Virus record (IMG/VR): IMGVR_UViG_2541047705_000005
DNA length: 17,849 nt
Source: a virus
Taxonomy: Duplodnaviria > Heunggongvirae > Uroviricota > Caudoviricetes
Strand: one strand, 5' to 3'
The notes under the pieces are model-generated. The model was given only the letters and a program-made list of their open reading frames with translations, was not told the origin of the DNA and did no database searches. Shown piece after piece: positions 1,369 to 17,849 of the stretch. Position 1 is the first letter of the stretch; each line of letters begins with the position of its first letter. The position numbers and the translations under genes were made by a program.

Positions 1369-1444
1369 GCCGATATAGCTCAGTTGGTAGAGCAGCGCAT
1401 TCGTAATGCGAAGGTCGTAGGTTCGACTCCTATTATCGGCACCA
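1369..1444 (+). tRNA. thrW: tRNA-Thr (anticodon CGU)
   Basis: 76-nt sequence GCCGATATAGCTCAGTTGGTAGAGCAGCGCATTCGTAATGCGAAGGTCGTAGGTTCGACTCCTATTATCGGCACCA: acceptor stem, D-loop AGCTCAGTTGGTAGAGC, anticodon loop with CGT, T-loop GGTTCGACTCC, encoded CCA; sits just downstream of proA as thrW does in E. coli. Confidence 0.93.
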
Positions 1445-2825: not shown

Positions 2826-2953
2826 CTGGTTGAGTATACAGTAGTAGACTTTGAGCGACGAAAGAAAAGGCTGTGTCTAGGGTCGCTCCCGAAAATCCGT
2901 ACACCTCGACGGACTGGTACAGCCACTACAGTAGAGGACGCTGAGGTGTGCGT

Positions 2954-3751
2954 ATGATTGATATTCATGCCGAATTAAACGAATACAAAAAAGATTTTAT
3001 TTCTTTACGTGAATTTCTTGAGGTCGTGCTTAAGGTCGCTGGTGATGATTATGATGTTTCAGATGTCATAACTTGGATACTCAGGAGAATAAGCGGAGAA
3101 CATATCCGCCTGTACACAGTAAATGAATTTAAGCTGTTGGAATCTTTTTGTAACCCGTATCGGGATGAATTTGATAATGATGTTCTTTATAGAAATCTGA
3201 ATGCGGTTCGGAAACGTGGTTGTTTACCTGGTGAGAGGGATGAAAATGGTTTTCTGGTGTCCGGTTATTGGGAAGATCCCGAATTTGAGAACATTGGATT
3301 TATAAGGGGTGAAATTTTCGCAATTTTTCCCGATGTCCTTGACGCGTTAACGAAGCTGGAAGGCGCTAACTCTTCTGAAAATGACGAGGCACAAGGACGC
3401 GATATTGAAAAGAAAGAGTTGCGTACAGAGGATGATTTATTATCCCAAATCGCAATGCTGGAAAAAGAAAACGCAGAGTTAAGGGCAAGGATAGAGCAGT
3501 TAGAGCAAGAGCGCCCGATACACTTATATAAATACTGGGATAAAGACCCATTAGCTAAGGCTATTGAGATTAGAAACAGAGAGTGGGCCAATTACGATCC
3601 AGAAAATGATTTTGCCACCAGGGGAAATCAAGAAGCGATAACCAGGGAGCTTAAGCAGTGGGGGGCAAGTAATGCACTTGCAACGCTCATAGAGAGGACT
3701 GCCTGCCCTATTAACCGAGACAACAGTCAAAAGAACGCAAAGCCGGATTAA
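2954..3751 (+). CDS. Hypothetical protein with central coiled-coil (LLSQIAMLEKENAELRARIEQLEQE); function unknown
   Basis: ORF-track ORF 2948..3751; I prefer the ATG at 2954, which is 5 nt downstream of GAGGTG. No recognisable catalytic motif. Confidence 0.6.
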   Translation: MIDIHAELNEYKKDFISLREFLEVVLKVAGDDYDVSDVITWILRRISGEHIRLYTVNEFKLLESFCNPYRDEFDNDVLYRNLNAVRKRGCLPGERDENGFLVSGYWEDPEFENIGFIRGEIFAIFPDVLDALTKLEGANSSENDEAQGRDIEKKELRTEDDLLSQIAMLEKENAELRARIEQLEQERPIHLYKYWDKDPLAKAIEIRNREWANYDPENDFATRGNQEAITRELKQWGASNALATLIERTACPINRDNSQKNAKPD

Positions 3752-3765
3752 CGCACCATACCGCA

Positions 3766-3910
3766 TACCCTGAGGGTGATTTACTGTTACCCTGAGGGTA
3801 TTTTTTTATCTTCCCCGTCAATTTTACCATCACCCTTAGGGTAGATTTCCTCCCGATTACCATCACCCTTAGGGTAGATTTCCTTCCGGTAACCATTAGG
3901 CCTGAGGGTA
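3766..3910. promoter_or_regulatory. Array of five near-palindromic ACCCT-N-AGGGT sites (3766-3777, 3789-3799, 3832-3842, 3865-3875, 3900-3909), including a 27-bp direct repeat TACCATCACCCTTAGGGTAGATTTCCT x2, upstream of alpA
   Basis: Read directly from sequence; the dyad symmetry suggests binding sites for a dimeric regulator in the alpA promoter region. Confidence 0.45.
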
Positions 3911-3978
3911 TGAAAATATTCGTTATTTCTGTGCCATGATTACCTCGTCAAATTGAGTAGACGTTATGAGGTAAATAT

Positions 3979-4176
3979 ATGTCAAATACGCTTATTCGTT
4001 TAACAGAAGTTCAGCGTAGAACTGGATATAGCAAGGCATGGATTTATCGCCTTATGGGGCAAGGTAAATTTCCTGCATCAGTTAAAATTGGCTCGCGAGC
4101 TATTGCTTTCGTTGAGAGTGAAATTGACGAGTGGATTAATCAGCGTATTGCGGAATCACGCGGAACAGCTACCTGA
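3979..4176 (+). CDS. alpA: AlpA/Vis-family prophage transcriptional regulator (small HTH protein)
   Basis: 65-aa protein MSNTLIRLTEVQRRTGYSKAWIYRLMGQGKFPASVKIGSRAIAFVESEIDEWI, the characteristic AlpA pattern; GAGGT RBS; position after int is typical for P4-like elements and Gram-negative PICIs. Confidence 0.8.
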   Translation: MSNTLIRLTEVQRRTGYSKAWIYRLMGQGKFPASVKIGSRAIAFVESEIDEWINQRIAESRGTAT

Positions 4177-4253
4177 TTAAATGGCTACGGGGCTATTGCC
4201 CCCAGCTATCCACCAGCAAATAAAAGTAACTTAATTCGATAGCAGGAGTTTTT

Positions 4254-5054
4254 ATGAAATTTCCAAAAACGCCCGTACAGGGGCGGGGCTTCGTTCGGCC
4301 TGAAAACCAGAATCTGCAAAATTTCGGCGAAATTATCCCGATTATTTCCGGCGTTATTGGCGGGAGTGAAACCACTATTGTTAGCGCCAGAGCGTTACAT
4401 AAGGCGTTAGGTGTAGGGCGCGTTTTCCGTTCGTGGATCAAGGGGCGCATTGAAGAATATGGGTTCACGGAAGGCGTGGATTATGAGGTTGTTGAATATT
4501 TGAGCCGACCCGATCCGGTGAGCGCAAAATCTCGCCAGCAAACCGCTCTTGAGTACATCATCACAGTGAACATGGCGAAAGAACTGGCGATGGTCGAACG
4601 TACCGAACAGGGCCGCGCCGTTCGCCAGTACTTTATCAAATGCGAGGAGGAGCTACACAAGGTTGCGCCTGTTCGTTCCGCAGCGTTACGCCGGGAACTG
4701 AAAGCCCGTATCACAGTTGCCAGCTACTTTAAGCCAATGTGTGCCGCGCTGGAGGCGTACCGGGCTGAACTGGGTAAAAACACACTCCAGCACCACTACA
4801 CCACGGAAGCGAACATGCTGGCGCGTATCGTGCTGGGTGGCATGACTGCAAAACAGTGGGCACTGGCGAACGGCATTACAGGCGAACCACGCGACCACAT
4901 GAGCACGTTGCAGCTTGAGCACCTTTCTTACCTTGAGCAGAGCAATATCACGCTGATTGAGTTAGGCCAGGACTACCACCAGCGGAAGGCTGAATTAATT
5001 CGTCTTTCGCAGCGTTGGTTAGCCCGTCGCATGGAGGAAAACAGCCATGTGTAA
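4254..5054 (+). CDS. Phage antirepressor-like protein (AntA/AntB-type N-terminal domain)
   Basis: 266-aa ORF; N-terminal SARALHKALGVGRVFRSWIKGRIEEYGFTEGVDYEV and later ITVNMAKELAMVERTEQGRAVRQYFIKCEEEL resemble antirepressor motifs as I recall them; AGGAG RBS 6 nt upstream. Family assignment is from memory, not a search. Confidence 0.55.
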   Translation: MKFPKTPVQGRGFVRPENQNLQNFGEIIPIISGVIGGSETTIVSARALHKALGVGRVFRSWIKGRIEEYGFTEGVDYEVVEYLSRPDPVSAKSRQQTALEYIITVNMAKELAMVERTEQGRAVRQYFIKCEEELHKVAPVRSAALRRELKARITVASYFKPMCAALEAYRAELGKNTLQHHYTTEANMLARIVLGGMTAKQWALANGITGEPRDHMSTLQLEHLSYLEQSNITLIELGQDYHQRKAELIRLSQRWLARRMEENSHV

Positions 5055-5771
5055 CGCTCTGACCGTTACAAAAAGAGAAAGCGCCCCGTTGCCGGAGCGC
5101 CTTTGTGAACGAATAGCCTACTGCGCCATATTGCTTACTGTCTACGAGGCAGATTATAGCGTTGTGGTCGCACAGAGTGAAGGCGCTGATCACCGTTACT
5201 ACAGCACGCCAGAAATGCAGAATATTTTGCTGCAAAATGTCGTTGGTCACACTGTCCGGAAAGCAAAAAATTTTGCTGGTGGCGCGACTGATGCGATTTT
5301 GTCAGGTCGCCAGGTGCTGATCAATCTGATGTCTGATTTCGTTCTGGATAAAACAAAGGCGACCGCAGAGGGCCGCCAGTGGGAAAGCTACATACTTGAA
5401 CGCATCGCCAACAATGCCAGATTTGCGGCTGGTGGGCAATGTGTCAGCTTTGCACCAATGACTCTATGTTTAACTGAGGGTCATTATGGTGAATATGCTG
5501 GCTTGCTGGTGGGCTATTCCTGCTCTTTAACATTGCCATGCCGCGATGTTTTCCAGGTATGCGACCCCATTTTTGTGCACCTGTACTCTTTAAGGAATTT
5601 CTCAAGGACAAACGCACAGGGCGCGAATCTGTCTGACTCATGCTCGTACGCTATCTTTCTGCGCTGTCTTTTCCGTGCCGGTGATGGTGTATTGGTTGAT
5701 TCTTTGTTGGTCATGGCGCTGCCCTGTAAAATAATGCACCGTAGTTCCTCACACCACGGCACCTATAGTGG

Positions 5772-6044
5772 TTATTCCTGCTCTTTAGCTTTGCGCCGCT
5801 GGAGTTCTTCACGCGCGACGGTGACGAGTTGCCCGATTTCCTCGGCAGCTTTGACTCCGATTTTTTCCACCTGCGCTAGGGCATCGAGCGAAGAAACCAG
5901 GGGATTTTCTCCGCTTCCTTCTGCCTGGCGGCGGGCGATTTCACCGCGAACGGCTGTAATCACGAAAGCGGCTATTGTTTCCCCTTCCGTTTTCGAATTT
6001 TCCATTTCCTCGATTACATCATGGGGGAAGCGGATATTTTTCAT
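5772..6044 (-). CDS. Putative ribbon-helix-helix (CopG/Arc-like) DNA-binding protein, divergent from the replication operon
   Basis: Minus-strand ORF (track 5772..6077); internal start gives MKNIRFPHDVIEEMENSKTEGETIAAFVITAVRGEIARRQ, which fits the RHH N-terminal beta-strand/helix pattern. No clear SD for either start, so the start is uncertain. Confidence 0.45.
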   Translation of the reverse strand: MKNIRFPHDVIEEMENSKTEGETIAAFVITAVRGEIARRQAEGSGENPLVSSLDALAQVEKIGVKAAEEIGQLVTVAREELQRRKAKEQE

Positions 6045-6168
6045 TTGCGATCTGCTGTTGATGTTTCCTGTTGCCATCAGAATGTCCGGTTATTTTGAGG
6101 TGTGTACACATTACACCAAAAGGTGTGTTGATAAAACACTTGACACTGTAGCACACTTAAATTTAATT

Positions 6169-6201
6169 TGTATATACACCAATTGTTGTGGTGTATATAC
6201 A
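6169..6201. promoter_or_regulatory. Perfect 12-bp inverted repeat TGTATATACACC-N9-GGTGTATATACA (candidate operator) in the divergent intergenic region; a TTGACA hexamer lies at 6140-6145
   Basis: Read directly; lies between the minus-strand RHH ORF and the plus-strand operon starting at 6268. Confidence 0.45.
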
Positions 6202-6267
6202 GCAACGCCCCGCAGTGGTGGCACACATGCAGGGCGTCTAACCAAACCGTTAAACGAGGTAACGATT

Positions 6268-6633
6268 ATGGCTGGAACACAGCATACCCAAACTCACCCT
6301 AAATTTATATACACCTTCCTGGCGGTGCACCGTGATTGCATTGCTGACGGTAAAAACACTGTACACGTAGCCGCCGATACGCTGGTTGATGCCTGCGAGA
6401 TGCTCAATGACATGGGCTATATCTCGGCAACATGGAAAGGGCGCGAAGAAAACACGCTGTTTATTCAGAAATGCGAAAACAATTTTATCTGGCGTTTTAT
6501 CGCCCTGAGTACGGCACAACCGCGCGTGATTCACATCGAGGCCACCAGCGAACAGGAAGCACGCCAGCAATCTCCTGATGGCTGCGTGATGGTATTCGCT
6601 GCCCGTATTCGCCAGGAGGTGGAGCATGTGTAA
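6268..6633 (+). CDS. Hypothetical protein (first gene of replication-module operon)
   Basis: ATG at 6268 preceded by GAGGT; it is the 3' part of the stop-free track ORF 5047..6633; the stop overlaps the next start (CATGTGTAA junction). Confidence 0.6.
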   Translation: MAGTQHTQTHPKFIYTFLAVHRDCIADGKNTVHVAADTLVDACEMLNDMGYISATWKGREENTLFIQKCENNFIWRFIALSTAQPRVIHIEATSEQEARQQSPDGCVMVFAARIRQEVEHV

Positions 6634-6850
6634 TGCAACATGGCCTGATGCAGCGGTAGACGCTATCAAAACGCTGATGGATTCACTTATTGAGATTTCT
6701 GCTATCGCTGGTGTGGCGCATAAACACGCAGCCAGAGAATCAGAATGCATCTCCCATTATTTAGCATTTGTGCAGCTGAAAGCCGATCAGGCACTGGATA
6801 AGGCCGGAAAAATTATCATGGCTGATGTACAGGAGGTGCACCATGCATAA
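6626..6850 (+). CDS. Hypothetical small protein
   Basis: 74-aa ORF, start overlaps upstream stop (translational coupling). Confidence 0.5.
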   Translation: MCNATWPDAAVDAIKTLMDSLIEISAIAGVAHKHAARESECISHYLAFVQLKADQALDKAGKIIMADVQEVHHA

Positions 6851-7208
6851 CCTGTCAATTTCTGACCTTAACAGCATTCAGTTTGACGAGATATTTTCCG
6901 GGCAGCTACTGGTCAACGTGGAGAATGGACGCGTGGTAAGTAATTATCACCTGCCGGATGGTGCAATTGCCGGAAGCGTTGAAGCATTGCTGGAGCTGGC
7001 GGAACGTGCGCGACTGATTAAGCCGTCAACGTGCCATCACGATGATGATCTGCATTTTACCGGGTGTATGGTGAGTCACTACGAAAACGGCGTTGAAGTA
7101 TCCTGCGAACGTCTGCGTGATGATTGCTGTTTCGGCACACTGCCGGAATTTATCGAATTGCTGACCAGTTGCGGTTATCAGGTCATTCAGGGGGGTAAAC
7201 ATGCGTGA
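6843..7208 (+). CDS. Hypothetical protein
   Basis: Track ORF 6825..7208; I prefer the ATG at 6843 (MHNLSISDL...) preceded by CAGGAGGT; overlaps the upstream stop by 8 nt. Confidence 0.55.
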   Translation: MHNLSISDLNSIQFDEIFSGQLLVNVENGRVVSNYHLPDGAIAGSVEALLELAERARLIKPSTCHHDDDLHFTGCMVSHYENGVEVSCERLRDDCCFGTLPEFIELLTSCGYQVIQGGKHA

Positions 7209-7434
7209 TGATCGTTTTAATTCCCTGAAACAGGAGTTTGATGGCGCACCGGAAGATACATCGGGCGCATTGTTGAGCATTGCTGACATGATGAAAGCTG
7301 CATATTTTCTTATCAATACCAGTGGCTACAAGTCAGAGGGTGAAATGATTCTTAGTATTGCGTCGGACTATGCTGAATATGTGGCAGAGACGCGTTACAG
7401 AAGAAAATCTCTGGAGGATGTAAGCCATGCATAA
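7201..7434 (+). CDS. Hypothetical small protein
   Basis: 77-aa ORF; ATG overlaps the upstream TGA. Confidence 0.5.
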   Translation: MRDDRFNSLKQEFDGAPEDTSGALLSIADMMKAAYFLINTSGYKSEGEMILSIASDYAEYVAETRYRRKSLEDVSHA

Positions 7435-7627
7435 TCATGAAGCGCATGTACCCGTAGTGCTTAATGTGCCAGATGATTTCACCGGACGCGTGCTGGTTTA
7501 CCTGGATAAAGGGAAAGTGAAATCACAATGCCGACTGAAAAGTAATGAGATTGTTGGTTCTCCTGAATTTTTTTCTGAACTTTGTATTCGTGCGGAAATA
7601 AAACCGGAACTGCTGACAGGAAAATAA
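7427..7627 (+). CDS. Hypothetical small protein
   Basis: 66-aa ORF; GGAGG 9 nt upstream; overlaps the upstream stop. Confidence 0.5.
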   Translation: MHNHEAHVPVVLNVPDDFTGRVLVYLDKGKVKSQCRLKSNEIVGSPEFFSELCIRAEIKPELLTGK

Positions 7628-7631
7628 AACC

Positions 7632-7922
7632 ATGAAAAAGAAAAATTCTGGCTTTACTGCCAGCGGCCTCTCTCGGCCTGAAATCCGCCCCGGTGATATT
7701 TTCCGGGACACCAGACGCGGGGGACGGGTGGTTATTCGTCACGTTACGCCAGGCAATATCACCTACCGCCGTGAGGCTTACGAATATGACTGCGTAATGC
7801 CGCGCCGTCAGTTTGAGCGTGATTTTATTCTGGTGGAAAACAAACAACAGGCAGTGGCGAGACGTGCAGCCACGAATATTAAAAAAATCCGGGCAATGTT
7901 GGTTGCGGGAGGTAAGAAGTGA
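7632..7922 (+). CDS. Hypothetical small basic protein
   Basis: 96-aa ORF; its stop overlaps the GTG start of the primase-like gene. Confidence 0.5.
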   Translation: MKKKNSGFTASGLSRPEIRPGDIFRDTRRGGRVVIRHVTPGNITYRREAYEYDCVMPRRQFERDFILVENKQQAVARRAATNIKKIRAMLVAGGKK

Positions 7923-9724
7923 AAAACGCACCGAATTTAAAATATCAGCCGAAGGATAAATTCACCGAGGTAATCATTTTTGCCGGGACGGATGCTTACG
8001 CCCATGCTCAACACTGGATTGAAAGCGAAGGACGAAAACACGGCGATAACGTGCCTCCTGTTTACCTGGGGCCAAAGCAACTGGCAGACCTGGCGAATAT
8101 CCGCATTGTCGACGATGAACGTCGCTTTGCGCGTGTCTATCTCGCGGGGGAGATAGAGCCAATCCAGATCAATGCTATTGCTGAAAAGCTGGCGCTGGCT
8201 GGTGTACAGGACGCGAAATTATACAAAGGTATCACCGACCGGGAGCCGGAAAACTGGCGCGACTACCTGCAACGGATCCGCGAACAGGCAGAGAGTGGGG
8301 AAGTTTCAGCGATGAAATTAGCCACAAAAAATATTGACCTATCCAGGCCAGCACTAAATCAGATGGGAGCCAGCCAGAGAGGGGAAGTGTTACTTGAATA
8401 TTATGGAAGAGCACTGGCTATAAATGATGATTCTGATGTAGTTCACCATTACAACGGAATTGTCTGGGTGCCTGTATCTGATAAGGAACTCCAGCGGTCT
8501 ATGGCGAAGATTTTTATTGATGCTGGAATCAGTTATTCGCAAAACGCCATTAAATTTGCCGTAGACACAATGAAATTGAGCCTGCCTGTTATGGGCGGGG
8601 CAGACAGGAATCTTATTGGATTCAGTAACGGGGTATTTGATACCCGGACGGGAAATTTTCGGGAGCATAACAAAAATGACTGGTTGTTAAATGCCAGTGA
8701 ATTACCGTTCAGCCCACCAGCAGAGGGGGAAACGCTGGCAACACATGCGCCGAATTTCTGGAAGTGGCTGCGTCGTTCGGTGGCAGATAATGAGCGTAAA
8801 GCTGATCGCGTACTGGCGGCATTATTCATGGTACTGGCGAACCGGTACGACTGGCAGTTATTCCTTGAGGTAACAGGCCCAGGCGGAAGCGGTAAAAGTG
8901 TGATGGCTGAGATTTGTACCATGCTGGCGGGTAAGGCCAACACAGTATCGGCAAGCATGAAGGCTCTGGAAGACGCAAGGGAACGCGCGTTAGTAGTTGG
9001 CTTTTCGCTGATTATCATGCCGGATATGACTCGCTACGCTGGCGATGGTGCAGGAATTAAGGCAATTACTGGCGGCGACAAGGTGGCAATTGATCCGAAA
9101 CATAAAGCCCCCTACTCCACACGTATTCCGGCAGTAGTGCTTGCGGTAAACAATAACGCCATGTCATTCAGTGACCGAAGCGGGGGGATCTCGCGTCGTA
9201 GGGTGATATTTAATTTCTCTGAGGTCGTACCGGAGAACGAACGCGATCCCATGCTGGCGGAAAAGATAGAAGGCGAACTGGCGGTAGTGATTCGCCATTT
9301 GCTAACACGATTTACCGACCAGGACGAAGCTAAAAGACTACTTTATGAGCAGCAAAAATCAGAAGAAGCGCTGTTGATAAAGCGCGAAGGTGATTCACTG
9401 GTGGACTTTTGCGGCTATCTGATGTCGTTGGTTAAATGTGAAGGAATGATGGTGGGCAATGCGGAAATAGTGCCATTTAGCCCGAGGCGATACCTGTATC
9501 ATGCTTATTTAGCCTATATGTCAGCGCATGGCCTGGGAAAACCAGTATCACTGACACGCTTTGGTACTGATATGCCAGGAGCTATGGCGGAATACGGAAA
9601 GGAGTATAAGCGGGCTAAATGCACTAAAGGCCCGGATAAAGGGCGAGTGATAACAAATGTTCTGTTAGATGATGATGCTGATGGCTGGTTGCCAGCAGCT
9701 ACAGGGATTAACGACAGAACATAA
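7919..9724 (+). CDS. Primase/helicase-like replication initiator (P4-alpha / D5-type NTPase family)
   Basis: 601-aa ORF, GTG start after GGGAGGT; Walker A P-loop LEVTGPGGSGKSVMAEI in the C-terminal half; last gene of a coupled operon and followed immediately by an iteron array, as expected for satellite pri/rep genes. Confidence 0.75.
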   Translation: MKNAPNLKYQPKDKFTEVIIFAGTDAYAHAQHWIESEGRKHGDNVPPVYLGPKQLADLANIRIVDDERRFARVYLAGEIEPIQINAIAEKLALAGVQDAKLYKGITDREPENWRDYLQRIREQAESGEVSAMKLATKNIDLSRPALNQMGASQRGEVLLEYYGRALAINDDSDVVHHYNGIVWVPVSDKELQRSMAKIFIDAGISYSQNAIKFAVDTMKLSLPVMGGADRNLIGFSNGVFDTRTGNFREHNKNDWLLNASELPFSPPAEGETLATHAPNFWKWLRRSVADNERKADRVLAALFMVLANRYDWQLFLEVTGPGGSGKSVMAEICTMLAGKANTVSASMKALEDARERALVVGFSLIIMPDMTRYAGDGAGIKAITGGDKVAIDPKHKAPYSTRIPAVVLAVNNNAMSFSDRSGGISRRRVIFNFSEVVPENERDPMLAEKIEGELAVVIRHLLTRFTDQDEAKRLLYEQQKSEEALLIKREGDSLVDFCGYLMSLVKCEGMMVGNAEIVPFSPRRYLYHAYLAYMSAHGLGKPVSLTRFGTDMPGAMAEYGKEYKRAKCTKGPDKGRVITNVLLDDDADGWLPAATGINDRT

Positions 9725-9751
9725 TACGAAATTTATAAGCTGAAACGTAAA

Positions 9752-10090
9752 GGTAGACGGTTGGTAGACAGATTCACTTAACCCTCTACCAACCATCTAC
9801 CAATTAATATTTTGAATTATAAAGATATTTTCAATGTGGTAGAGAGGTAGACAGTTATTTCTATATTCCTACACCACGGGGGGTATATAAAAAACAGATA
9901 GTTAAGGGGGCATTTTTTAAATTTCTCTTTTAACTGTCTACACTGTCTACCATTTAGTAAAAATCATTAATTATCAATGTATTAATGCGGTAGACCGTTG
10001 GTAGACAGTTTGCAGATTGTTTTTTTGTTATGTGTTAATAACATTAAATAAATCAATCAATTATATCGGTAGACAGTTGGTAGACAGTTG
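9752..10090. repeat. Iteron array: six copies of a ~20-bp unit GGTAGAC-N3-4-GGTAGACAG in both orientations (9752-9773, 9784-9801 inv, 9838-9856, 9933-9951 inv, 9989-10010, 10068-10090) separated by AT-rich spacers; putative replication origin
   Basis: Read directly; iterons plus AT-rich spacers immediately downstream of the primase/helicase-like gene match origin architecture of P4-like satellites and PICIs. Confidence 0.5.
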
Positions 10091-10095
10091 TAACG

Positions 10096-10638
10096 ATGGG
10101 GCAAAGCATGACTAAGCTGACCATTAACAGAAAACCAAAAGGTATTTACGGCACGCCGCAGAAAACGACGCAGGCGGCGCAGCAGCAGGATAAAACCACA
10201 TCGGCGCATAAAGTGATGCCCGGTAACCAGAAAGCGCAGCAGAAGCCCACAGGGGCAACACCGTGGCGGCATATGACCAAACGGCAGCGAAAAAACCGCA
10301 GACGCGTTAACCGCCTCACTGAGTTGTGGCCTGAATTATTCAGCCGGGAAGCACCGAAGCCGCTTAAGGTGGGGATATTCGACGACCTGATGCAGGATCT
10401 CGCCGTCAGGGGGCTGGCATTCGGGCCAGGGGCATTGCGTGCGACGCTGGCATCTTATGCGCAGTGTCCGCGCTATTACCGCGCCTTAATGGCTGGTGGG
10501 GTACGCTACGACCTGAAATGCCAGCCGTGCGGCGAGGTGACACCACAGGAACAACAGGACGCAGAAACGCGGCTGGTTGCGCTGAATGAGAAACGCAAAC
10601 GTCAGCGTCGGGCAGCAAAGGAGAAAACAGGCGCATGA
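10096..10638 (+). CDS. FinO/ProQ-domain RNA-binding protein (RNA chaperone-like)
   Basis: 180 aa; PLKVGIFDDLMQDL...LRATLASYAQCPRYYRAL...GVRYDLKCQPCGEV parallels the ProQ N-terminal domain (PLKIGIFQDL...LRSALRLYTSSWRYL...RVDLDGNPCGEL) as I recall it; start could be 10096 or 10108. Confidence 0.75.
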   Translation: MGQSMTKLTINRKPKGIYGTPQKTTQAAQQQDKTTSAHKVMPGNQKAQQKPTGATPWRHMTKRQRKNRRRVNRLTELWPELFSREAPKPLKVGIFDDLMQDLAVRGLAFGPGALRATLASYAQCPRYYRALMAGGVRYDLKCQPCGEVTPQEQQDAETRLVALNEKRKRQRRAAKEKTGA

Positions 10639-10922
10639 TTCACGACAGCAAAGCGGAAGCTCTGGAAGCGCGTGGTCTGTACCGGAGAGCGGCGGCGCGG
10701 TGGGCTGAGGTCATCATGCTGGCGAATGATGACAAGGCACGGGAGCAGGCGGCAAAACGTCGCGCGGAATGTATCCACAAGGCAGCACGCCCACCAGCAA
10801 GGCAGGATAATTTCGGGGAGATGCGCAAAACCATCAGCCGGGCACATGCCGGGATGGGATTACATCAGCCCAATGGTGAGGCATTCAGGAAATACCAAAA
10901 AAAGAACAATTGTAGTCAGTAA
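10635..10922 (+). CDS. PerC-family transcriptional regulator-like protein
   Basis: 95 aa; N-terminus KAEALEARGLYRRAAARWAEVIM matches my recollection of the PerC-family signature; ATGA overlap with the FinO/ProQ gene. Family call is from memory. Confidence 0.5.
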   Translation: MIHDSKAEALEARGLYRRAAARWAEVIMLANDDKAREQAAKRRAECIHKAARPPARQDNFGEMRKTISRAHAGMGLHQPNGEAFRKYQKKNNCSQ

Positions 10923-11056
10923 CAGAGGATGGGATTCTCTTGGTTTTTTGTTGATGCTTTCTGAGGAAATCTACTACGTTGCTGAGCAGATGAATATTCA
11001 ATTGCATCTGGGTTCCTGATAAGATTAATCTGAATATTTTCATTTGGAATAGGGAT

Positions 11057-12199
11057 ATGAATAAAACTTTAATTGCAACATTAGTCGGTATAGTAATGTT
11101 AACCGGATGTGGGCCAGAAGAGTTAACTCCAGAACAGAAACAGGAAGTAGCGGCTCTTAAAGCTGAACTGTCGCAAACGGAAGGTGAAATATCAGCAGCT
11201 AAGGAAGTTGACCAGCAGTTTTCTGGTGGGTTGATAAAAAATCTGACAACAGCAAGACTGGAAATATTAGGAACTAATAAAGCGCTTTTGGAACAGCGTA
11301 TTAATGCTATTGAATCAGGCGCCAAAATTGATGTTGTTGTATCTGGAGTAAAACCTGATCCTGAGCTTGCTGCTTCAATTAAAACTGAAATTGACAGCTT
11401 AGATGCAAAAATCAACGAAGCCAAAGCTGATGCTCGTCAGTATAGTGGTGGTCTGATAAAGGTACTAAAATTATCTACTGTTGCCACTGAAGAGCAGACT
11501 ATGGCAATGTTGCAGCAAAAGTACCTCACAGCCAAGTATGGCCTCGCTGAAGTTAAGCTGGCATCAGTACAAGATAATGACGCAAAAAACAGTACTGAAA
11601 CGGAAGTAACAGCCAAAAATTCCCAAGATCAACTTCCTTTACTCCCGCCAGCGGATGGTCCGTTTGGCTTAGAAGCCGGTCTTACACAGAAAAACATCGA
11701 AGATATGATCGGTGCTAAGCTCAAGCCACTACCAGACAGTGTGAATCTGTATACTTCTGATAAATTACCGAAGCAAAACGCAGATTTTGAAATGTATGGT
11801 TTGTTGATCTCCCCGAAAGCTGGTTTATGTCAAATACGGGCTTTAGGAAAAAATATTGATACTGATAGCTATGGATTGGCTCTTAAATCCAAGTTTGAAG
11901 AATTGAGTAATTCTTTAAGTTCTCTGTATGGAAAGGCTGATACTACAGACTTTTTGCTGGCTGGTTCAATTTGGAAAGATCCTCAGGACTGGATGAGGGG
12001 GCTAAACAAAAAAGAACGCTTCTTATCTGCCACATGGAAGGGAACAAAAGAAATACCATTAAAAAACAATATTGATACTATCTCTATTGAGGCCAGAGCG
12101 AACAATTCCACTCAGGGATATGTCTATCTGCAGTACTCATTTACAAATGACGAAATTTGTCAGGCAGAAATTGAAGGGGCGAAAAAAAGTTCCCTTTAA
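11057..12199 (+). CDS. Predicted lipoprotein (signal peptide with lipobox LTGC), function unknown
   Basis: 380 aa; N-terminal MNKTLIATLVGIVMLTGCGPEE; the mature region has repeated coiled-coil-like segments (ARLEILGTNKALLEQRINAIESGAKIDVV / ...IDSLDAKINEAKADARQYSGGLIKVLK). Confidence 0.7.
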   Translation: MNKTLIATLVGIVMLTGCGPEELTPEQKQEVAALKAELSQTEGEISAAKEVDQQFSGGLIKNLTTARLEILGTNKALLEQRINAIESGAKIDVVVSGVKPDPELAASIKTEIDSLDAKINEAKADARQYSGGLIKVLKLSTVATEEQTMAMLQQKYLTAKYGLAEVKLASVQDNDAKNSTETEVTAKNSQDQLPLLPPADGPFGLEAGLTQKNIEDMIGAKLKPLPDSVNLYTSDKLPKQNADFEMYGLLISPKAGLCQIRALGKNIDTDSYGLALKSKFEELSNSLSSLYGKADTTDFLLAGSIWKDPQDWMRGLNKKERFLSATWKGTKEIPLKNNIDTISIEARANNSTQGYVYLQYSFTNDEICQAEIEGAKKSSL

Positions 12200-12211
12200 A
12201 CAATCCGTGCA

Positions 12212-12238
12212 AAGCCCCTTAGTAAGGGGCTTTTATAT
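12212..12238 (+). terminator. Rho-independent terminator after the lipoprotein gene
   Basis: AAGCCCCTT-AGT-AAGGGGCTT perfect 9-bp stem followed by a T-rich tract (TTATATATT). Confidence 0.55.
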
Positions 12239-12262
12239 ATTAATGTCCAACGGGGGGATTAG

Positions 12263-12586
12263 ATGAAAGATAATCTAGAAAAACTAATTGAAAATACTTT
12301 AAAAGATATTCTATTAGCTAATGCTGCTCTAACATTCATTTTTGCAATACCAATGGCTATTATCAGTAGGCATGGGATGGGCATCACAATCTGGTTTATA
12401 ACTGTGCTCATTGCACCTGCTCTGTGTGCAGTAGGTGCATGGCTTGTATCTCGAACATTCGGCCATGCTGAGGAGTTCTTTCATCGTCGGTGGGCTAAGC
12501 GAATTTATGTTTTTTATACTCTTGCGGCTGCCGAGTTTTTGCTTGTGTACTCAATCGCGCAAATAATGAAAAATCTGATGAAATAA
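12263..12586 (+). CDS. Small integral membrane protein (two to three predicted TM helices), function unknown
   Basis: 107 aa with hydrophobic segments ALTFIFAIPMAIISRHGMGITIWFITVLIAPALCAVGAWLV; GGGGGGA RBS. Confidence 0.6.
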   Translation: MKDNLEKLIENTLKDILLANAALTFIFAIPMAIISRHGMGITIWFITVLIAPALCAVGAWLVSRTFGHAEEFFHRRWAKRIYVFYTLAAAEFLLVYSIAQIMKNLMK

Positions 12587-12775
12587 TTAACAAGTTATTA
12601 TCATGGGGTTTGTGGCTGTTAACCTGCAGTGAGGCGACAATCGTGTATTTATAAAAACTTCCCCTTTTCACTCCCCGCTGTTTCTTCTGCTATTGCCTTT
12701 ATGTTTGCATGCACCAACATCTGCCATACCTTTGCAGAAAAATCAGAGCATTCAGTGCCGAAGGTTGGTTTATTG

Positions 12776-12868
12776 ATGCTTTTCGTTTCATTTATTGCAA
12801 TTGTCTCTGGTATCATTTCAATTTGTGCAATAATTGCAATTATTGTCATTCAGAAGGGATCATCATGA
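12776..12868 (+). CDS. Possible 30-aa hydrophobic peptide (MLFVSFIAIVSGIISICAIIAIIVIQKGSS)
   Basis: In-frame ATG inside track ORF 12629..12868; single TM-like helix; its TGA overlaps the next ATG (ATGA). Weak SD; speculative. Confidence 0.3.
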   Translation: MLFVSFIAIVSGIISICAIIAIIVIQKGSS

Positions 12869-13032
12869 AAAATCACGGAGTAAAGCCAGTTTTACTTTCC
12901 CGGAGGCAGATCGAAGCCCTGCAACGCATCCAGGACGAAGAGCGTCAGAAATCTGTGCTTGGTGTGGCACCGTCGATTCATGTTACTGCCCGGCAACTGA
13001 TGGATAAGGCACTTAAAGAGGTGAGGCTGTGA
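12865..13032 (+). CDS. Small 55-aa protein (MKNHGVKPVLLSRRQIEALQRIQDEERQKSVLGVAPSIHVTARQLMDKALKEVRL)
   Basis: 3' part of track ORF 12709..13032; ATG at 12865 preceded by AGAAGGGA; stop overlaps the GTG start of the next gene. Confidence 0.45.
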   Translation: MKNHGVKPVLLSRRQIEALQRIQDEERQKSVLGVAPSIHVTARQLMDKALKEVRL

Positions 13033-13301
13033 AATTAAATATCAGAGTGGATAAACGCCAGCTATGGCAGAAAAAAGAGAACAGCGAGGCATTCAGGGCT
13101 TTGCTGGTGGAAAATCTTCGGCACCGGTTCAGTGGAGAGTTGCCAGATGCACTGGGGAAGAAACTGGAATCCCTGACAGTGGAAATTGGCGATTATGGCT
13201 TTGTTGATGTTGAAAGCACGACTGCCAACACAGAAATCGTAAAACAGGTCGTCAATGATGTAATGAAAACCACGCTTAGCCAGCCATCCTGGCGCAACTG
13301 A
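13029..13301 (+). CDS. Hypothetical 90-aa protein
   Basis: ORF-track ORF with GTG start overlapping the upstream TGA (GTGA); followed by a hairpin. Confidence 0.5.
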   Translation: MKLNIRVDKRQLWQKKENSEAFRALLVENLRHRFSGELPDALGKKLESLTVEIGDYGFVDVESTTANTEIVKQVVNDVMKTTLSQPSWRN

Positions 13302-13309
13302 ATCAGTAA

Positions 13310-13330
13310 GGGGCGGTTATTGCCCCTTTC
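13310..13330 (+). terminator. Terminator-like hairpin (GGGGC-N7-GCCCC followed by TTTCCTCC)
   Basis: Read directly; T-tract is weak. Confidence 0.3.
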
Positions 13331-13400
13331 CTCCATACCCACAACGCATTCCCTTTCCGCATGAAATTATTTTTTATCGTATATGCATGAGGTGAGCTAC

Positions 13401-13928
13401 ATGTTGATGAGTAAAGCCGAATACGCCAAATACAAAGGCGTAAGCCGCCAGACAGTTTACGACTGGCTCGAGAAAGGCGAAGTGGTCATGTCCGGTAAAA
13501 AAATTGATGTGGAAGCGACAGAGCAGCGGAACAGCCCACCAGCACAGGGGAAAGACACCATTTCTGAAATGTGGCCAGAAAGAACGCTGGAAATGACATG
13601 GGGCGAGTTCTGGAAAGCAGTTAAGGCCAGAGACGGTAAAATTCCTGCGCCAGTAACGGACGAGGGCATACAGCAGCATGTGCTGTATGCAGCCGGGGAA
13701 TTAGGCTGGGAAGTGCACTTTCTTGATGATGGTGCTATCTGTCTTGAGGATGATGAAGGGCAGCATTACTTTGAAAAATACAATTTGCGAGGTAATGCCA
13801 GGCTGGCAATTCGTATGCTGCGTTGCGAACTCTGCTATGTTGCCAGCGATTGTCCCGATGAACAGGACACATGGAGTGAGGCAGGACTAAACGCCTTGGC
13901 TGAATGGGAAAAATCAGGCCATCAATGA
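13401..13928 (+). CDS. HTH DNA-binding protein with Nu1/TerS-like N-terminal pattern; candidate packaging-redirection (Rpp-like) or regulatory protein
   Basis: Track ORF 13383..13928; I prefer the ATG at 13401, 7 nt after GAGGTGA. N-terminal MLMSKAEYAKYKGVSRQTVYDWLEKGEV resembles the lambda Nu1 wHTH pattern (KKQLADIFGASIRTIQNWQEQG) in spacing of conserved positions; followed by a dense repeat array. Confidence 0.55.
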   Translation: MLMSKAEYAKYKGVSRQTVYDWLEKGEVVMSGKKIDVEATEQRNSPPAQGKDTISEMWPERTLEMTWGEFWKAVKARDGKIPAPVTDEGIQQHVLYAAGELGWEVHFLDDGAICLEDDEGQHYFEKYNLRGNARLAIRMLRCELCYVASDCPDEQDTWSEAGLNALAEWEKSGHQ

Positions 13929-13933
13929 CCTCA

Positions 13934-14190
13934 AAAAGTGTCAAGTTGAGCAGTTTGCCAGGTTGACACTTTACACTCTGAACGCGAAAAAGTGTCAACC
14001 TCGCTGGATGCCTCGCCATTACTGGCCTTGTACCATATTCACCACGTCAAAAAACCGAAAAAATAGCGAAAAGTGTCAAGTTGCCATGCTTAGAAATGCT
14101 AAGGTTTGATAAGGTTTTTCGCGAAAAAGTGTCAAGTGTGTCAACCTGCGGTATTAAGATTTATTAAGGTCTTAAGCCGGAAAGTGTCAA
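13934..14190. repeat. Array of seven GTGTCAA core repeats (six direct, one inverted; consensus CGAAAAAGTGTCAAC) plus TAAGATTT-N-TAAGGT repeats; candidate packaging (cos/pac-proximal) or regulator binding region
   Basis: Core copies at 13938-13944, 13963-13969 (inverted), 13992-13998, 14073-14079, 14129-14135, 14138-14144, 14184-14190; read directly. Confidence 0.5.
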
Positions 14191-14221
14191 CCAGCCCCTA
14201 AGATTTCCTAAGGTGTAAATC

Positions 14222-14401
14222 ATGACCATCACCGAAGCCGATATGCTGGAGATGCTCCGCAGCATTGCCGAAATCAAACAACCAGCAAGCAAAATTAACA
14301 GGTGTTCAGCGCCTGTTTCCGTTGTGCTGCAACAGGAACGCCACCAGCATGATGATGTGAGGCCGTATCAGTGGAAGAAACCGGACAGGCTGCGGCGATA
14401 A
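14222..14401 (+). CDS. Possible 59-aa protein (MTITEADMLEMLRSIAEIKQPASKINRCSAPVSVVLQQERHQHDDVRPYQWKKPDRLRR), absent from ORF track
   Basis: ATG at 14222 is 6 nt downstream of TAAGGTG; ORF is 60 codons, presumably just below the track's length cutoff. Confidence 0.35.
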   Translation: MTITEADMLEMLRSIAEIKQPASKINRCSAPVSVVLQQERHQHDDVRPYQWKKPDRLRR

Positions 14402-14750
14402 AGGGTTGTTTAAAAGGTAGTTCAAAATTGAGTTCGCTAGCCGTCTAGCTTATCGATGCGTTAATTGGTTGATATTTTTTATGTCGTAATATTGTGTTCT
14501 GTGGCTGGTGGGAGTTTATGTTGAAAACTACCGATTCTGATAGGCTTTTTGCCATACGTATGCAGGAGAATTGACCATGTGAAGCAGGCAGGCATGTTGA
14601 GGAGAGCACTTACGCAGGATTGCTTAATCATTATTGAAAGACTCTGTGTTTCAAGTATCCTAATCAGTTAACTTCAGGAGCAAATTTTGAGCTTATACGG
14701 ATCCCCGTATTATGAGCCTCAATTGAAAATTTTGGGTAAGTGATTTAAAG

Positions 14751-15977
14751 ATGATTGCAGGCGCGAAAAGAGGGAGAAACGAACGCAAGGGGCTTCACTC
14801 TTGGCATCCATACTATGCGGGCTATTCAGAGTCATTTGTGGCTTCTGTTTTGCAGGCTGAAGGAGTTAAGTCGTCCGCTACCGTTCTTGATCCTTGGATG
14901 GGAAGCGGTACCACTGGTATAGTTTGTCAAAAGCAAACCATAAAGTGTATTGGAGCAGATATTAATCCTGTAATGAGCTATTTTGCTGCAGCCAAAAGTA
15001 GGGATAATATTTCAGCGCTGGATTATACCGGAGAGCAACTCCTGGAAAGGATACTGCTTTGCTTTAGAAAAAAAACAAAAGATATAACTGAGTCATCGAA
15101 GGGCTATCCACTTATTGAACAGTTACAAAAGTTTTATAAATGTATCTGTGATCAGTTTATGGATAAAGGACAAAATGATATCGTAAATCCTTTAAAAGCA
15201 TTTTATTGCAGTGTTTTATTTTATACTGTTCGCAATGTCCTTGATGTTAGGTCAACTTCAAATCCTACATGGATTTCTAAAAAAGTAGACTTTAATAATA
15301 AATTTGATATTTGTTTTGAATATAATAAAAATTTTAAAATTATGCGTGAGCAGTTAAGTGAATATTATGGCAGCGCTAATGGGGGGGCATGTTACTCGAT
15401 TTTAAACGTGGATAGTAAAAAATTAAATATTAAAAGTAACACAATTGATCTTGTTATTACATCGCCACCGTATTTAACACGAATAGACTATGCCGTTTCT
15501 ACTCGTCTTGAGTTGGAAATAATTTTAGGGAGTGAGGGATATAAGTCTCTTAGAAAGGAAATGATGGGCACGACGACTGTGCCTAAAGTTGCGGATGAAA
15601 TTAATAAAAAATGGGGGCCATTGTGTATGGATGTTTTGTCATCGGTAACATCGCATACATCAAGAGCATCTGGAAGTTATTACCTTAAAAATAAAATTAG
15701 ATATTTTTCTGATGCGTATGAGTCATTAATGGAAATCTTTAGAGTTTTAAAGGTAGGTTGCTCTGGTTATTTTGTAATACAAAATTCATATTATAAGGAA
15801 ATAGAGATTCCGCTTTATGATATTTATTGTGAAATGGCGCTTTCTATTGGGTTTTCAGAAGCGAAATGTGTGAGAGAAGATCAAGTTAAAGCAATATTTG
15901 GACAAATAAATACCAAGTCAAAAAATTATATTAAAGATAAAGTTTATTTTGAAAAAATCATAAGGATAACAAAATGA
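14751..15977 (+). CDS. DNA methyltransferase (amino-methyltransferase: N4-cytosine or N6-adenine), motif I before motif IV
   Basis: 408 aa; SAM-binding motif I VLDPWMGSGTTG (14889-14918) and catalytic motif IV SPPY in DLVITSPPYLTRIDYA (15462-15473); AT-rich codon usage; stop overlaps next start (ATGA). Confidence 0.8.
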   Translation: MIAGAKRGRNERKGLHSWHPYYAGYSESFVASVLQAEGVKSSATVLDPWMGSGTTGIVCQKQTIKCIGADINPVMSYFAAAKSRDNISALDYTGEQLLERILLCFRKKTKDITESSKGYPLIEQLQKFYKCICDQFMDKGQNDIVNPLKAFYCSVLFYTVRNVLDVRSTSNPTWISKKVDFNNKFDICFEYNKNFKIMREQLSEYYGSANGGACYSILNVDSKKLNIKSNTIDLVITSPPYLTRIDYAVSTRLELEIILGSEGYKSLRKEMMGTTTVPKVADEINKKWGPLCMDVLSSVTSHTSRASGSYYLKNKIRYFSDAYESLMEIFRVLKVGCSGYFVIQNSYYKEIEIPLYDIYCEMALSIGFSEAKCVREDQVKAIFGQINTKSKNYIKDKVYFEKIIRITK

Positions 15978-17086
15978 ATGACGTAACTAAATTGCTATCT
16001 CAGATAGATGAAAAAAGAGATGAGGTAGTAACTGATTCTTATACCATATCATGGCGTGAAGTAATTAATCTATATAAAGAAAATGAGATAACCATTTCTC
16101 CAGACTACCAAAGGCTTTTTCGTTGGGATAACGCAAGACAAAGCCAATTTATCGAGTCATTACTTTTAAATATACCTACGCCAACACTTTTTTTCTACAT
16201 TGATAATAATGGTAAGCAGGAGGTTATCGATGGATTGCAACGTGTGAGTACTATAATTAGATTTTTTTCAGAGGATATTTTTAATAAGGAAGAAATAGAT
16301 AATGCAAAGAAACAAAACTCTGTAAATGATGTCCGTAATCCAACTGTTCTTGATGATGTGCCTATAATTACAGAATTAAATGGATGGACTGCAAAAGGAT
16401 TGCCGGACAAAGTTAGCCGAACTATAAAAAATGCGCGAGTAAATGTTGTTATTTTGGAGCAAGAAACAAAACCTGAAACTAAATATAATGTTTTTAAACG
16501 ACTGAATAGGTCTGGTGTTCGTTTGAGTGACCAGGAAATACGTAATTGCATGGCTAGATTAGCAGGGAATGAATTTGCAGATCGCTTACGTAAGATGGCC
16601 GAAATTGATGGTATTGTTCAAGCTCTTGGAATAAATGAAGATGGCCAAAAATCTCAAGGTGTTGAGGAAGCTTTGCTACGAGTTATGGCATCTTTGACTT
16701 ATGCGGATAAATTTAGCCATAGTGTAACTGACTTTTTGGATGAATTTATGTTCTACGCGGCAGAACATAATGTTATTGATATTAATTTTGAATTAAAAAT
16801 AAAAAGAACTTTTGATTTGATAAATATTGCTGGTTTATCTGGTAAAGCATTTAAATTTAGAAAGGATGGTGCTCCAAGTGGCCCGTTTAGTACTAATTTA
16901 TTAGATGTTGTTGCTGTTGGTATTTTTAGTAATGTAGATAATTTAACACCTGCTGAGGTGGCGAAAAGATTTGATTATTTAATGGATGGTGAGATCAAAG
17001 AATTAAGAGCTTGTACTGGTTCTGGATCTAATACTAAAGCCAAATTAGAGAAAAGAATCGCTCTTGGGAAGAAGGTGTTTGGATAA
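15974..17086 (+). CDS. DUF262 (ParB/Srx-like NTPase domain) protein, stand-alone (no DUF1524/HNH domain evident)
   Basis: 370 aa; N-terminal signature PDYQRLFRW...IESLLLNIPTPTLFF...VIDGLQRVSTII (DGQQR-type motif, 16229-16243); AAGGA RBS; translationally coupled to the methyltransferase. Confidence 0.8.
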   Translation: MNDVTKLLSQIDEKRDEVVTDSYTISWREVINLYKENEITISPDYQRLFRWDNARQSQFIESLLLNIPTPTLFFYIDNNGKQEVIDGLQRVSTIIRFFSEDIFNKEEIDNAKKQNSVNDVRNPTVLDDVPIITELNGWTAKGLPDKVSRTIKNARVNVVILEQETKPETKYNVFKRLNRSGVRLSDQEIRNCMARLAGNEFADRLRKMAEIDGIVQALGINEDGQKSQGVEEALLRVMASLTYADKFSHSVTDFLDEFMFYAAEHNVIDINFELKIKRTFDLINIAGLSGKAFKFRKDGAPSGPFSTNLLDVVAVGIFSNVDNLTPAEVAKRFDYLMDGEIKELRACTGSGSNTKAKLEKRIALGKKVFG

Positions 17087-17087
17087 A

Positions 17088-17849
17088 ATGAGAATATCAG
17101 ATTTCGATGATTTCAAGGTGATGTTGGAAAAGACGAAAAATGAAAGTCTTGGATTCCTTGAGAGCATAAAGTCTATTAATGAGTTTATGTCGAGATCAGG
17201 TGATAAAGACAAGGAGGATATGTTTAGAATAATATCGGTCCCAATGATTTATTCTTCTTGGGAGGGTTTTTTTACTGAAACAATGTCAGTTTGCTTAAAT
17301 ACATTGAAACTCTCAGATAGAGAAGCATTTAGATACTCTGCAGAAATTCGAGCACTTTGGTTGCAACGAGAACCATTTTATAGCAAGTATGTAGATATGA
17401 TAAAAAATATTTATGATGCTGACTCACACCGAAGCATTGTCCATAATGGCGCCCAAATAAAAAAGAAAGTTACGAAGGGGGCGTTTAAACTAACAAGTGA
17501 GGTAATTCAACACATTGACAGGTTTAATAAATCCACATTATCAGATTGCGATGTTTCTGAATTAGTTATGACATTTTCCAATGTGAATGAAATGGTTGTC
17601 AAGGTGAATTTCGATGCTATAGGTTTGGATTATTCATTACTTGATTTATCGCAACTAGGTGAGGTTGTTGGCCTTAGAAATTCTTTGGGACATGGGGAGT
17701 TTAAAAGTAGTGTTAACCCTAGGAAATTTAATTCAATAATTGTGTATGTGGAAAATCTGATCATCGATTTGAATCAATGTGCTATAACGTGGTTGGATAA
17801 ATTAGAAGATGAAATAACTAAGCCTGAAGATAATGAGACTATTCAGTGA
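17088..17849 (+). CDS. Predicted all-alpha protein with C-terminal Rx4H motif (LRNSLGHGEF); putative HEPN-domain RNase effector
   Basis: Track ORF 17064..17849 uses a TTG; I prefer the ATG at 17088, 10 nt after GAAGGTG. R-N-S-L-G-H at 17676-17693 fits the HEPN Rx4-6H motif; stop TGA is the last codon of the window. The HEPN call rests on motif and composition only. Confidence 0.5.
   Translation: MRISDFDDFKVMLEKTKNESLGFLESIKSINEFMSRSGDKDKEDMFRIISVPMIYSSWEGFFTETMSVCLNTLKLSDREAFRYSAEIRALWLQREPFYSKYVDMIKNIYDADSHRSIVHNGAQIKKKVTKGAFKLTSEVIQHIDRFNKSTLSDCDVSELVMTFSNVNEMVVKVNFDAIGLDYSLLDLSQLGEVVGLRNSLGHGEFKSSVNPRKFNSIIVYVENLIIDLNQCAITWLDKLEDEITKPEDNETIQ

Follow-up and report, generated by a model that had tools for sequence, protein, structure and literature searches.

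The window, meaning the whole 17,849-nt stretch of DNA analysed here, begins in proA and extends across the thrW tRNA gene into an integrated island. The features of its left part and of the island core are:

1–1254: proA, at the left end of the window
1369–1444: tRNA-Thr (thrW)
1558–1582: left copy of a 25-nt direct repeat, TTGGGGGTACTTTTGGGGGTAT, which flanks the element; the other copy is at 18833–18857 of the PD23 locus (L001)
1611–2825: tyrosine integrase gene
2870–2937: int-alpA RNA motif (Rfam; 45.5 bits, which exceeds the gathering score), in the gap separating the integrase gene from the following ORF
Between this motif and the primase gene: AlpA, AntA/B antirepressor, Icd-like and DUF4222 island genes
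7919–9724: D5-type primase gene, with D5_N, DUF5906 and Pox_D5 as its only domains
After the primase gene: ProQ/FinO, PerC and several small genes of the island core
13401–13928 (+): core gene for a 175-aa protein with an N-terminal winged helix-turn-helix (wHTH)
13935–14190: array of seven AAAGTGTCAA boxes with ~55-nt spacing, a candidate protein-binding array
14222–14401 (+): final gene of the conserved core, 59 aa, at whose stop codon the near-identity with sister islands ceases

The span between the two direct repeats is ~16.6 kb, roughly half the length of a P2 genome (33.6 kb), and its left copy is located outside the tRNA itself, 114 nt further downstream. Four iterons (GGTAGACNGTTGGTAGACAG) are present at 9752–10090 in the AT-rich gap (GC ~0.35) that lies 3′ of the primase gene, and this gap is where replication of the island likely originates. 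A Pfam-type domain search found neither a Psu nor an Ogr_Delta domain in any ORF scanned, which argues that the element is PICI-like and not P4-like. It has neither psu, sid nor delta, nor an alpha primase with a Zn-ribbon/Toprim N-terminus, and therefore falls outside the P4-like satellites. It does have an integrase gene, alpA, a primase/rep gene with an adjacent iteron origin, and a dedicated att site, together with a size within 10–18 kb and an absence of structural and lysis genes, all as in Gram-negative PICIs. Assigned by gene content, the element is thus a PICI-type satellite island at thrW. Gram-negative PICIs of E. coli, EcCICFT073 and EcCIMP1, have been described (PMC6092414, PMC6739421, PMC11773190), and the window likewise has the order int-AlpA-antirepressor-primase-ori iterons-PerC, a size of ~16 kb and no structural genes. 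EcCIMP1 also occupies the same proA-yagU (thrW) site and carries a similar gene set (PMC11773190).

The core of this island is shared with related islands at 83–99% identity as far as the stop codon that ends the 59-aa ORF, which is itself 99% identical to its counterpart in TUM9757 and 83–95% identical to those of other island classes. By megablast, DNA similar to 13300–15300 is present in 170 of 5426 complete E. coli genomes; 13 of these match throughout, and most of the remaining relatives lose similarity at window 14390–14397, i.e. at the end of the 59-aa ORF. As judged by homology, 14401/14402 is a real boundary. Beyond it, related islands contain at least 12 other cargoes, giving at least 13 cargo classes together with that of the window. 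In TUM9757 the cargo is a 229-aa protein together with a zinc-ribbon protein of 576 aa; other relatives have DUF4747 plus a protein of 199 aa, a 662-aa RNA-binding-domain protein, or DUF3800 with a partner on the opposite strand. E. ruysiae has a 480-aa protein, and IMG/VR contigs add further classes. The window's own cassette is found in 13 of the 5426 genomes in copies at least 99.9% identical, a combination of rarity and near-invariance that would fit a single island variant having spread recently. Comparison with related islands therefore upholds the proposal, made in an earlier note on this DNA, that a core/cargo junction in a satellite hotspot lies here, with different cargo filling the same junction. 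The TUM9757 and MFDS cargoes were found only in this island family and not in E. coli P4-like elements.

Five IMG/VR contigs (L021, L022, L023, L025 and L040) have their ends right at the stop codon of the 59-aa ORF, probably because assembly breaks off where cores that are nearly identical lead into differing cargo. The E. ruysiae locus (L011, 6912–7496) has an AT-rich gene for a 194-aa membrane protein between the AAAGTGTCAA array and the 59-aa ORF, indicating that insertions occur to the left of this ORF too.

The stretch between the 59-aa ORF and the first cassette gene, 14402–14750, is divided as follows:

14402–14590 (+): left flank of a cos-like site, of island type (presumed terminase-recognition side), aligning upstream of cos in P2, 186, P4 and P4-like satellites
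14591–14609 (+): candidate 19-nt cohesive-end sequence, GGCATGTTGAGGAGAGCAC (cosN equivalent), matching the P2/P4 sequence GGCGAGGCGGGGAAAGCAC at 13/19 positions
14610–14615 (+): degenerate right border of the cos-like site, TTACGC in place of YGCGCGC, and recombination joint
14616–14750 (+): upstream region travelling with the cassette (putative promoter, 5′ UTR, ribosome-binding region), 94% identical to the Cronobacter locus L043
14634–14661 (+): promoter-like site TTGAAA-16-TATCCT from a consensus scan, overlapping an inverted repeat TTGAAA...TTTCAA

Reference cohesive ends were taken from the records, GGCGAGGCGGGGAAAGCAC for P2 and P4 and GGCGTGGCGGGGAAAGCAT for 186. The right border of the window's cos carries a 1-nt deletion, and an ungapped P2/P4/186 matrix misses the window because of a 1-nt indel; the matrix was replaced by gapped profile searches. 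A first gapped profile, built on the three known cos regions of P2, P4 and 186, identifies TUM9757 (E=2.9e-11) and E. ruysiae (E=5.4e-8), both in the stretch 3′ of the 59-aa ORF, and further island variants in IMG/VR (6e-6 to 1e-4). With this profile the window (E=0.57) and MFDS1006657 (E=0.8) each yield a top match in their locus that is not significant. A second profile, to which the significant island sites were added and from which the window's close relative TUM9757 was left out, matches window 14522–14618 with E=1.4e-4, the sole match in the window, and inclusion of TUM9757 brings this to E=7.6e-11.

Direct alignment of the window and TUM9757 gives 75% identity over 14395–14608 (E=7e-29), such that identity is 99% within the 59-aa ORF, falls to ~75% from its stop codon, and is lost after ~14612. 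A search with 14395–14760 returned 13 identical copies and four genomes with different cargo that match the first 214 nt at 75%. A 33-nt block at 14517–14549, located 42–74 nt upstream of the 19-mer, is identical to TUM9757 at 32/33 positions, suggesting selection on this segment in variants that are otherwise 75% alike. The two 19-mers agree at 15/19 positions, a conservation no better than that of their surroundings.

The invariant G, A and T positions of the cos family are retained in a multiple alignment that includes the window, and at least six distinct island cos variants keep them. Variants of the GGGGAGAGCAT type are also present in L041, a bona fide P4-like satellite whose alpha gene encodes 777 aa, and one island 19-mer differs from the cos of that satellite by a single base. 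The window's 19-mer occupies the same position as the bona fide cos of a Cronobacter P4-like satellite. The site thus has what characterizes the P2/186/P4 family, namely the 19-mer and its conserved flanks of ~28 nt upstream and YGCGCGC downstream, with the right border degenerate; it is also the most diverged of the island set, and its match is at profile level and weaker than those of its sister islands. From these comparisons we consider it very probable that 14402–14615 is a diverged homologue of the P2/186/P4 cos, and this part is therefore not the plain leader that had been described for the whole of 14402–14750.

Of 21 informative related loci, about 9 have no site of this kind 3′ of the 59-aa ORF. 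Such a site is lacking in classes L004, L005, L017, L024, L032 and L036 (L029 is doubtful) and in the Serratia and Pantoea relatives, so that the island family is not uniformly dependent on it. Exact and degenerate searches of IMG/VR for the window's 19-mer returned only island copies, one TUM9757-type island and one P4-like satellite; BLAST of the stretch against 50,697 phage records gave chance-level matches only. With no phage carrying an identical 19-mer found in either set, no helper with a matching cos was identified. EcCICFT073 has a lambda-type cosQ/cosN together with Rpp, whereas the window has a P2-type cos; no lambda-type cosN is present in the window within 2 mismatches and no Rpp protein is sequence-detectable there, and it does not have the Rpp/lambda-cos packaging arrangement.

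The genes to the right of this stretch form a three-gene cassette:

14751–15977 (+): cassette gene 1, N6/N4-type DNA methyltransferase (MTase), 408 aa (Pfam N6_N4_Mtase 6.6e-14; PADLOC MTase_II; GC3 0.27)
15974–17086 (+): cassette gene 2, DUF262/GmrSD_N (ParB-like) protein, 370 aa (Pfam 9.8e-27; PADLOC NsnA 1e-55, PD-T4-2_A 1e-41)
17088–17849 (+): cassette gene 3, HEPN nuclease-like protein (RiboL-PSP / MAE_28990 type; Pfam 2.9e-15, 4.5e-7; RefSeq annotation in PD23)

These domains mark the cassette as defence-like, and an anti-phage role is presumed from them. The DUF262 protein matches the NsnA model and is paired with a HEPN protein, which recalls Menshen (NsnABC). That system needs NsnA (DUF262), NsnB (an ABC ATPase with DUF3696) and an NsnC effector (PMC12065111), whereas the window's cassette has no ATPase gene; with the NsnA-like protein only and NsnB missing, assignment to Menshen was rejected. 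PD-T4-2 consists of two genes, encoding a DUF262 protein (A) and a partner (B), and the A model is matched at 1e-41. The window differs in the addition of a DNA methyltransferase and in a HEPN partner that matches no PADLOC model, and the cassette resembles PD-T4-2 with an added methyltransferase.

Beyond the near-identical E. coli copies, relatives of the methyltransferase are found in Cronobacter sakazakii (87% aa identity) and Enterobacter soli (86% aa identity). The Cronobacter locus (L043), a typical P4-like satellite, has the order alpha (777 aa), DUF5375, ASH, AlpA, a sid-sized gene, Ogr/Delta, Psu, cos, MTase-GmrSD_N-HEPN and int, and is 94% identical to the window in nucleotide sequence from 14616 (AGGATTGCTTAA...) through the start codon, and 88% identical over the whole cassette. 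To the left of 14616 the two share just the resemblance of the cos family. In L043, whose cos scores E=1.3e-21, the shared sequence begins directly after GGCGGGGCGGGGATAGCAT-TGCGCGC, and in the window the cassette homology starts 6–7 nt after the 19-mer; this places the left joint of the cassette at the right border of cos, 14610–14616. The cassette therefore has its own left end at 14615/14616 and not at 14402, where it had been drawn earlier. An IS-flanked metagenome copy (L045) shares the upstream region from 14621 at 75%, and a Providencia copy shares it only from 14728. Two nested joints, 14401/14402 and 14615/14616, thus bracket the cos-like site; these alignments support them well, and we place as much confidence in their positions as in the cos homology itself.

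On the right side, the homology with L043 extends ~190 nt beyond the stop codon of the HEPN gene and reaches sequence that in Cronobacter forms the 3′ part of int. PD23 has at the corresponding side (L001, 18665–18739, ~820–890 nt past the window end) a remnant of a P4-like integrase C-terminus, VIEAT*VHYDKNDIRKEYNSSTYLL, with an in-frame stop. This scar suggests a P4-like hotspot, or a common source with that arrangement, as the origin of the cassette. The window's cos has a left flank of non-P4 type and hence did not arrive with this cassette. A cos-plus-cargo unit is identical in L019 and L034 even though their cores and ORFs are just 86% identical, indicating that cos and cargo move together in these islands. 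The integrase remnant of PD23 sits directly 3′ of the terminator hairpin of the cassette.

GC content is 0.468 in the island core (1611–14401) and 0.340 in the cassette (14751–17849), and GC3 drops from 0.46–0.60 in the neighbouring core genes to 0.27, 0.22 and 0.32 in cassette genes 1–3, in agreement with the AT-rich codon choice noted previously for all three. A compositional break had been placed at ~14400, and the discontinuity is indeed large, but in a single-change-point likelihood scan of 12800–17849 the best change point is at 15063 (2-lnL support 14903–15113, lnL gain 44), inside the methyltransferase gene and ~500–650 bp downstream of 14400. The intervening 14402–14750 was taken to be AT-rich; its overall GC of 0.387 is intermediate, with ~0.34 at both ends but 0.45–0.46 in the middle. 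Similarly, the core upstream is not uniformly GC-balanced, as 9600–10200 (the ori region) and 11057–12586 are also AT-rich. The first 300 nt of the methyltransferase gene (14751–15050) have a GC of 0.46 compared with 0.30 for the rest of the gene, and the homologues from Cronobacter, the metagenome and Providencia likewise have a GC-richer start (3 of 3 cassettes examined). A pattern common to all homologues belongs to the gene itself, and a recombination mosaic at this position was rejected for that reason.

The low GC of the cassette had also been attributed to recent acquisition from a lower-GC donor. However, its GC is 0.30–0.35 in every host examined (E. coli, Cronobacter, a metagenomic enterobacterial contig and Providencia), and it is AT-rich even in the Cronobacter P4-like satellite, whose own genes have a GC of 0.58. 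The alternative cargoes of related islands are all AT-rich as well (GC 0.29–0.43). Low GC is thus a property of the cassette and of hotspot cargo generally, and is uninformative on a recent donor; the nearest source of the cassette is another Enterobacteriaceae satellite.

Among known systems, the cos-adjacent hotspot of P4 and P2 comes closest, the difference being the carrier. In P2 and P4 the hotspots directly adjoin cos, the sole region shared by both element types (PMC9122126). In that system (Rousset et al. 2022, PMC9122126) and in the island family alike, AT-rich variable cargo of defence type lies a few bases 3′ of a P2-family cos and in either orientation, and different gene systems occupy this one position in related elements, as expected for a hotspot. 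The same three-gene cassette, moreover, fills the psu-cos-int hotspot of the Cronobacter P4-like satellite. The carrier in the window, in contrast, has no psu, sid, delta or P4-type alpha gene, and its cos is more diverged than that of any of the P4-like examples examined. P4 (NC_001609) has the order psu-164 bp-cos-227 bp-gop and the window has orf59-189 bp-cos-141 bp-MTase, which are alike in arrangement and similar in sequence at family level only; in P4 the int gene follows directly after the hotspot, whereas the window's island has its attachment site between the two. In a 2026 survey, PICI and cfPICI satellites yielded no close homologues of P4 or P2 defence genes (PMC13586616), and published surveys that located elements by psu (PMC9122126) would have left the window's island out. 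The window, by comparison, has a PICI-type island with a P2-family cos homologue and a hotspot directly 3′ of it, occupied by a cassette 88% nucleotide-identical to that of a P4-like satellite, with both joints mapped, the left at the cos border and the right at a P4-type int scar.

We moderately favour the explanation that this is a PICI-type island in which the apparent leader is a composite of the island's own cos region and the promoter region of its cargo, with cargo being swapped at cos as an anchor. Such an island would excise and replicate after helper induction, and a P2-like helper would supply the terminase that cuts cos, so that the cassette would form the extreme left end of the DNA in the particle, the position that gop-beta-cII has in P4. 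In recombination that exchanges the neighbouring cargo, cos would also provide the anchor on the left, a role suggested by its being the sole sequence shared by otherwise unrelated P2-like phages, P4-like satellites and this island family. Presumably, a dimer of the ~16.6-kb island would fill a P2-size head. We put the chances evenly for and against the window's cos being a working packaging signal. Retention of the family signature in several island variants, the 33-nt block, the joint movement of cos and cargo in L019 and L034 and the half-P2 length speak for its use; the divergence of the site and its damaged right border, the failure to find a phage with the same 19-mer and the related loci without such a site speak against it. 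If it does function, the helper range attributed to such islands would widen to P2-like phages, the locus would provide a concrete example of cos as an anchor of cassette exchange, and psu-keyed surveys would miss part of the cos-linked defence pool. More tentatively, these islands could represent an unrecognised family of enterobacterial satellites with PICI-like regulation and replication and without sid, psu and delta, which would parasitise P2-like phages through a diverged P2-type cos and share a defence pool with P4-like satellites, cos being the docking site for exchange.

A less likely but serious alternative is that the cos-like sequence is a non-functional relic, carried in with earlier cargo captured out of P4-like or P2-like hotspots, in which case packaging, if any, would use some other signal, one candidate being the wHTH protein acting with the AAAGTGTCAA array. 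The P4-like int fragment that survives as a scar across the cassette is in accord with such capture, as are the 13/19 match of the window's 19-mer to P2 and its damaged right border. Many sister islands without a cos-like site nevertheless keep the wHTH gene, the box array and the 59-aa ORF, and the wHTH domain resembles the N-domains of small terminases and Rpp. A relic brought in with this cassette should have a P4-type left flank, which the window's cos does not have, and neither the retention of the invariant family positions in at least six distinct island variants nor the near-perfect 33-nt block (32/33) in variants otherwise 75% alike fits well with loss of function.

The possibility raised by the earlier note, that the whole 350 bp is an AT-rich promoter/5′-UTR leader of the acquired cassette, perhaps with a regulatory RNA, is now very unlikely, as just 14616–14750 travels with the cassette, whereas 14402–14615 is shared with islands of other cargo and is homologous to cos. 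The absence of a conserved ORF and the promoter-like site at 14634–14661 are what remains in its favour, and a promoter is plausible within the last ~135 bp. This site is one of just two promoter-like sites in 13300–15300 by the consensus scan, and the 28-nt block TTGAAA-N16-TATCCT is identical in three contexts (the window, L043 and L045) while the flanks diverge; the match is weak, at 9/12 consensus positions, in a region with fewer such sites than its shuffles. We infer that 14634–14661 is the best candidate for the cassette promoter, and it is possibly also an operator. The P2/P4 late-promoter motif TGT-N12-ACA is absent in and near the stretch. As to RNA, no Rfam family matches the stretch (gathering thresholds over the whole window; E<=5 on 13800–15000), and relative to shuffles the 3′ part folds slightly better (z = -1.76) but the 5′ part worse (z = +1.65), leaving a structured RNA without support from either approach. 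The intergenic stretch would accordingly be annotated as a cos-like site plus putative cassette promoter, not as a leader.

A hidden gene for a small protein on either strand is highly improbable, as the frames of the minus-strand ORFs of 54 aa (14445–14609) and 50 aa (14479–14631) and of an 18-codon plus-strand ORF at 14519 are broken by two separate 1-nt indels relative to TUM9757 and none is annotated in RefSeq; the previous statement that the stretch contains no ORF stands for the plus strand but not for the minus strand.

The AAAGTGTCAA boxes upstream of the 59-aa ORF comprise six exact plus-strand copies and one inverted copy, a count reached in 0 of 200 shuffles, and the array also includes repeat families D1–D6 and three TAAGRTTT..TAAGGT boxes. 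The array is kept in E. ruysiae, and GGTTTACAC-type boxes are present instead in Pantoea. The N-terminal domain of the wHTH protein resembles Xis, small terminases and Rpp at similar scores, and the protein and its neighbouring boxes may constitute a packaging-specificity factor or a regulatory array, or may be unrelated to either. Homologues of the wHTH gene (57% identity) are present in four Klebsiella loci (L049–L052) within primase-bearing islands that adjoin a truncated major-capsid gene and prophage tail genes, with no cargo or cos-like site after them, a layout reminiscent of helper-embedded satellites.

The second AT-rich patch of the island core, 11057–12586 (GC3 0.31–0.32), encodes a 380-aa lipoprotein-like protein and a 107-aa membrane protein, and is replaced by other genes in TUM9757 and EcPF14; it may be a second variable locus of the island. 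In L019 (12999–13503) and L034 (8921–9426) the cargo is followed by a tRNA 3′ end, the att region and the start of int, and these continuations may reflect tandem islands or circular or concatemeric forms.
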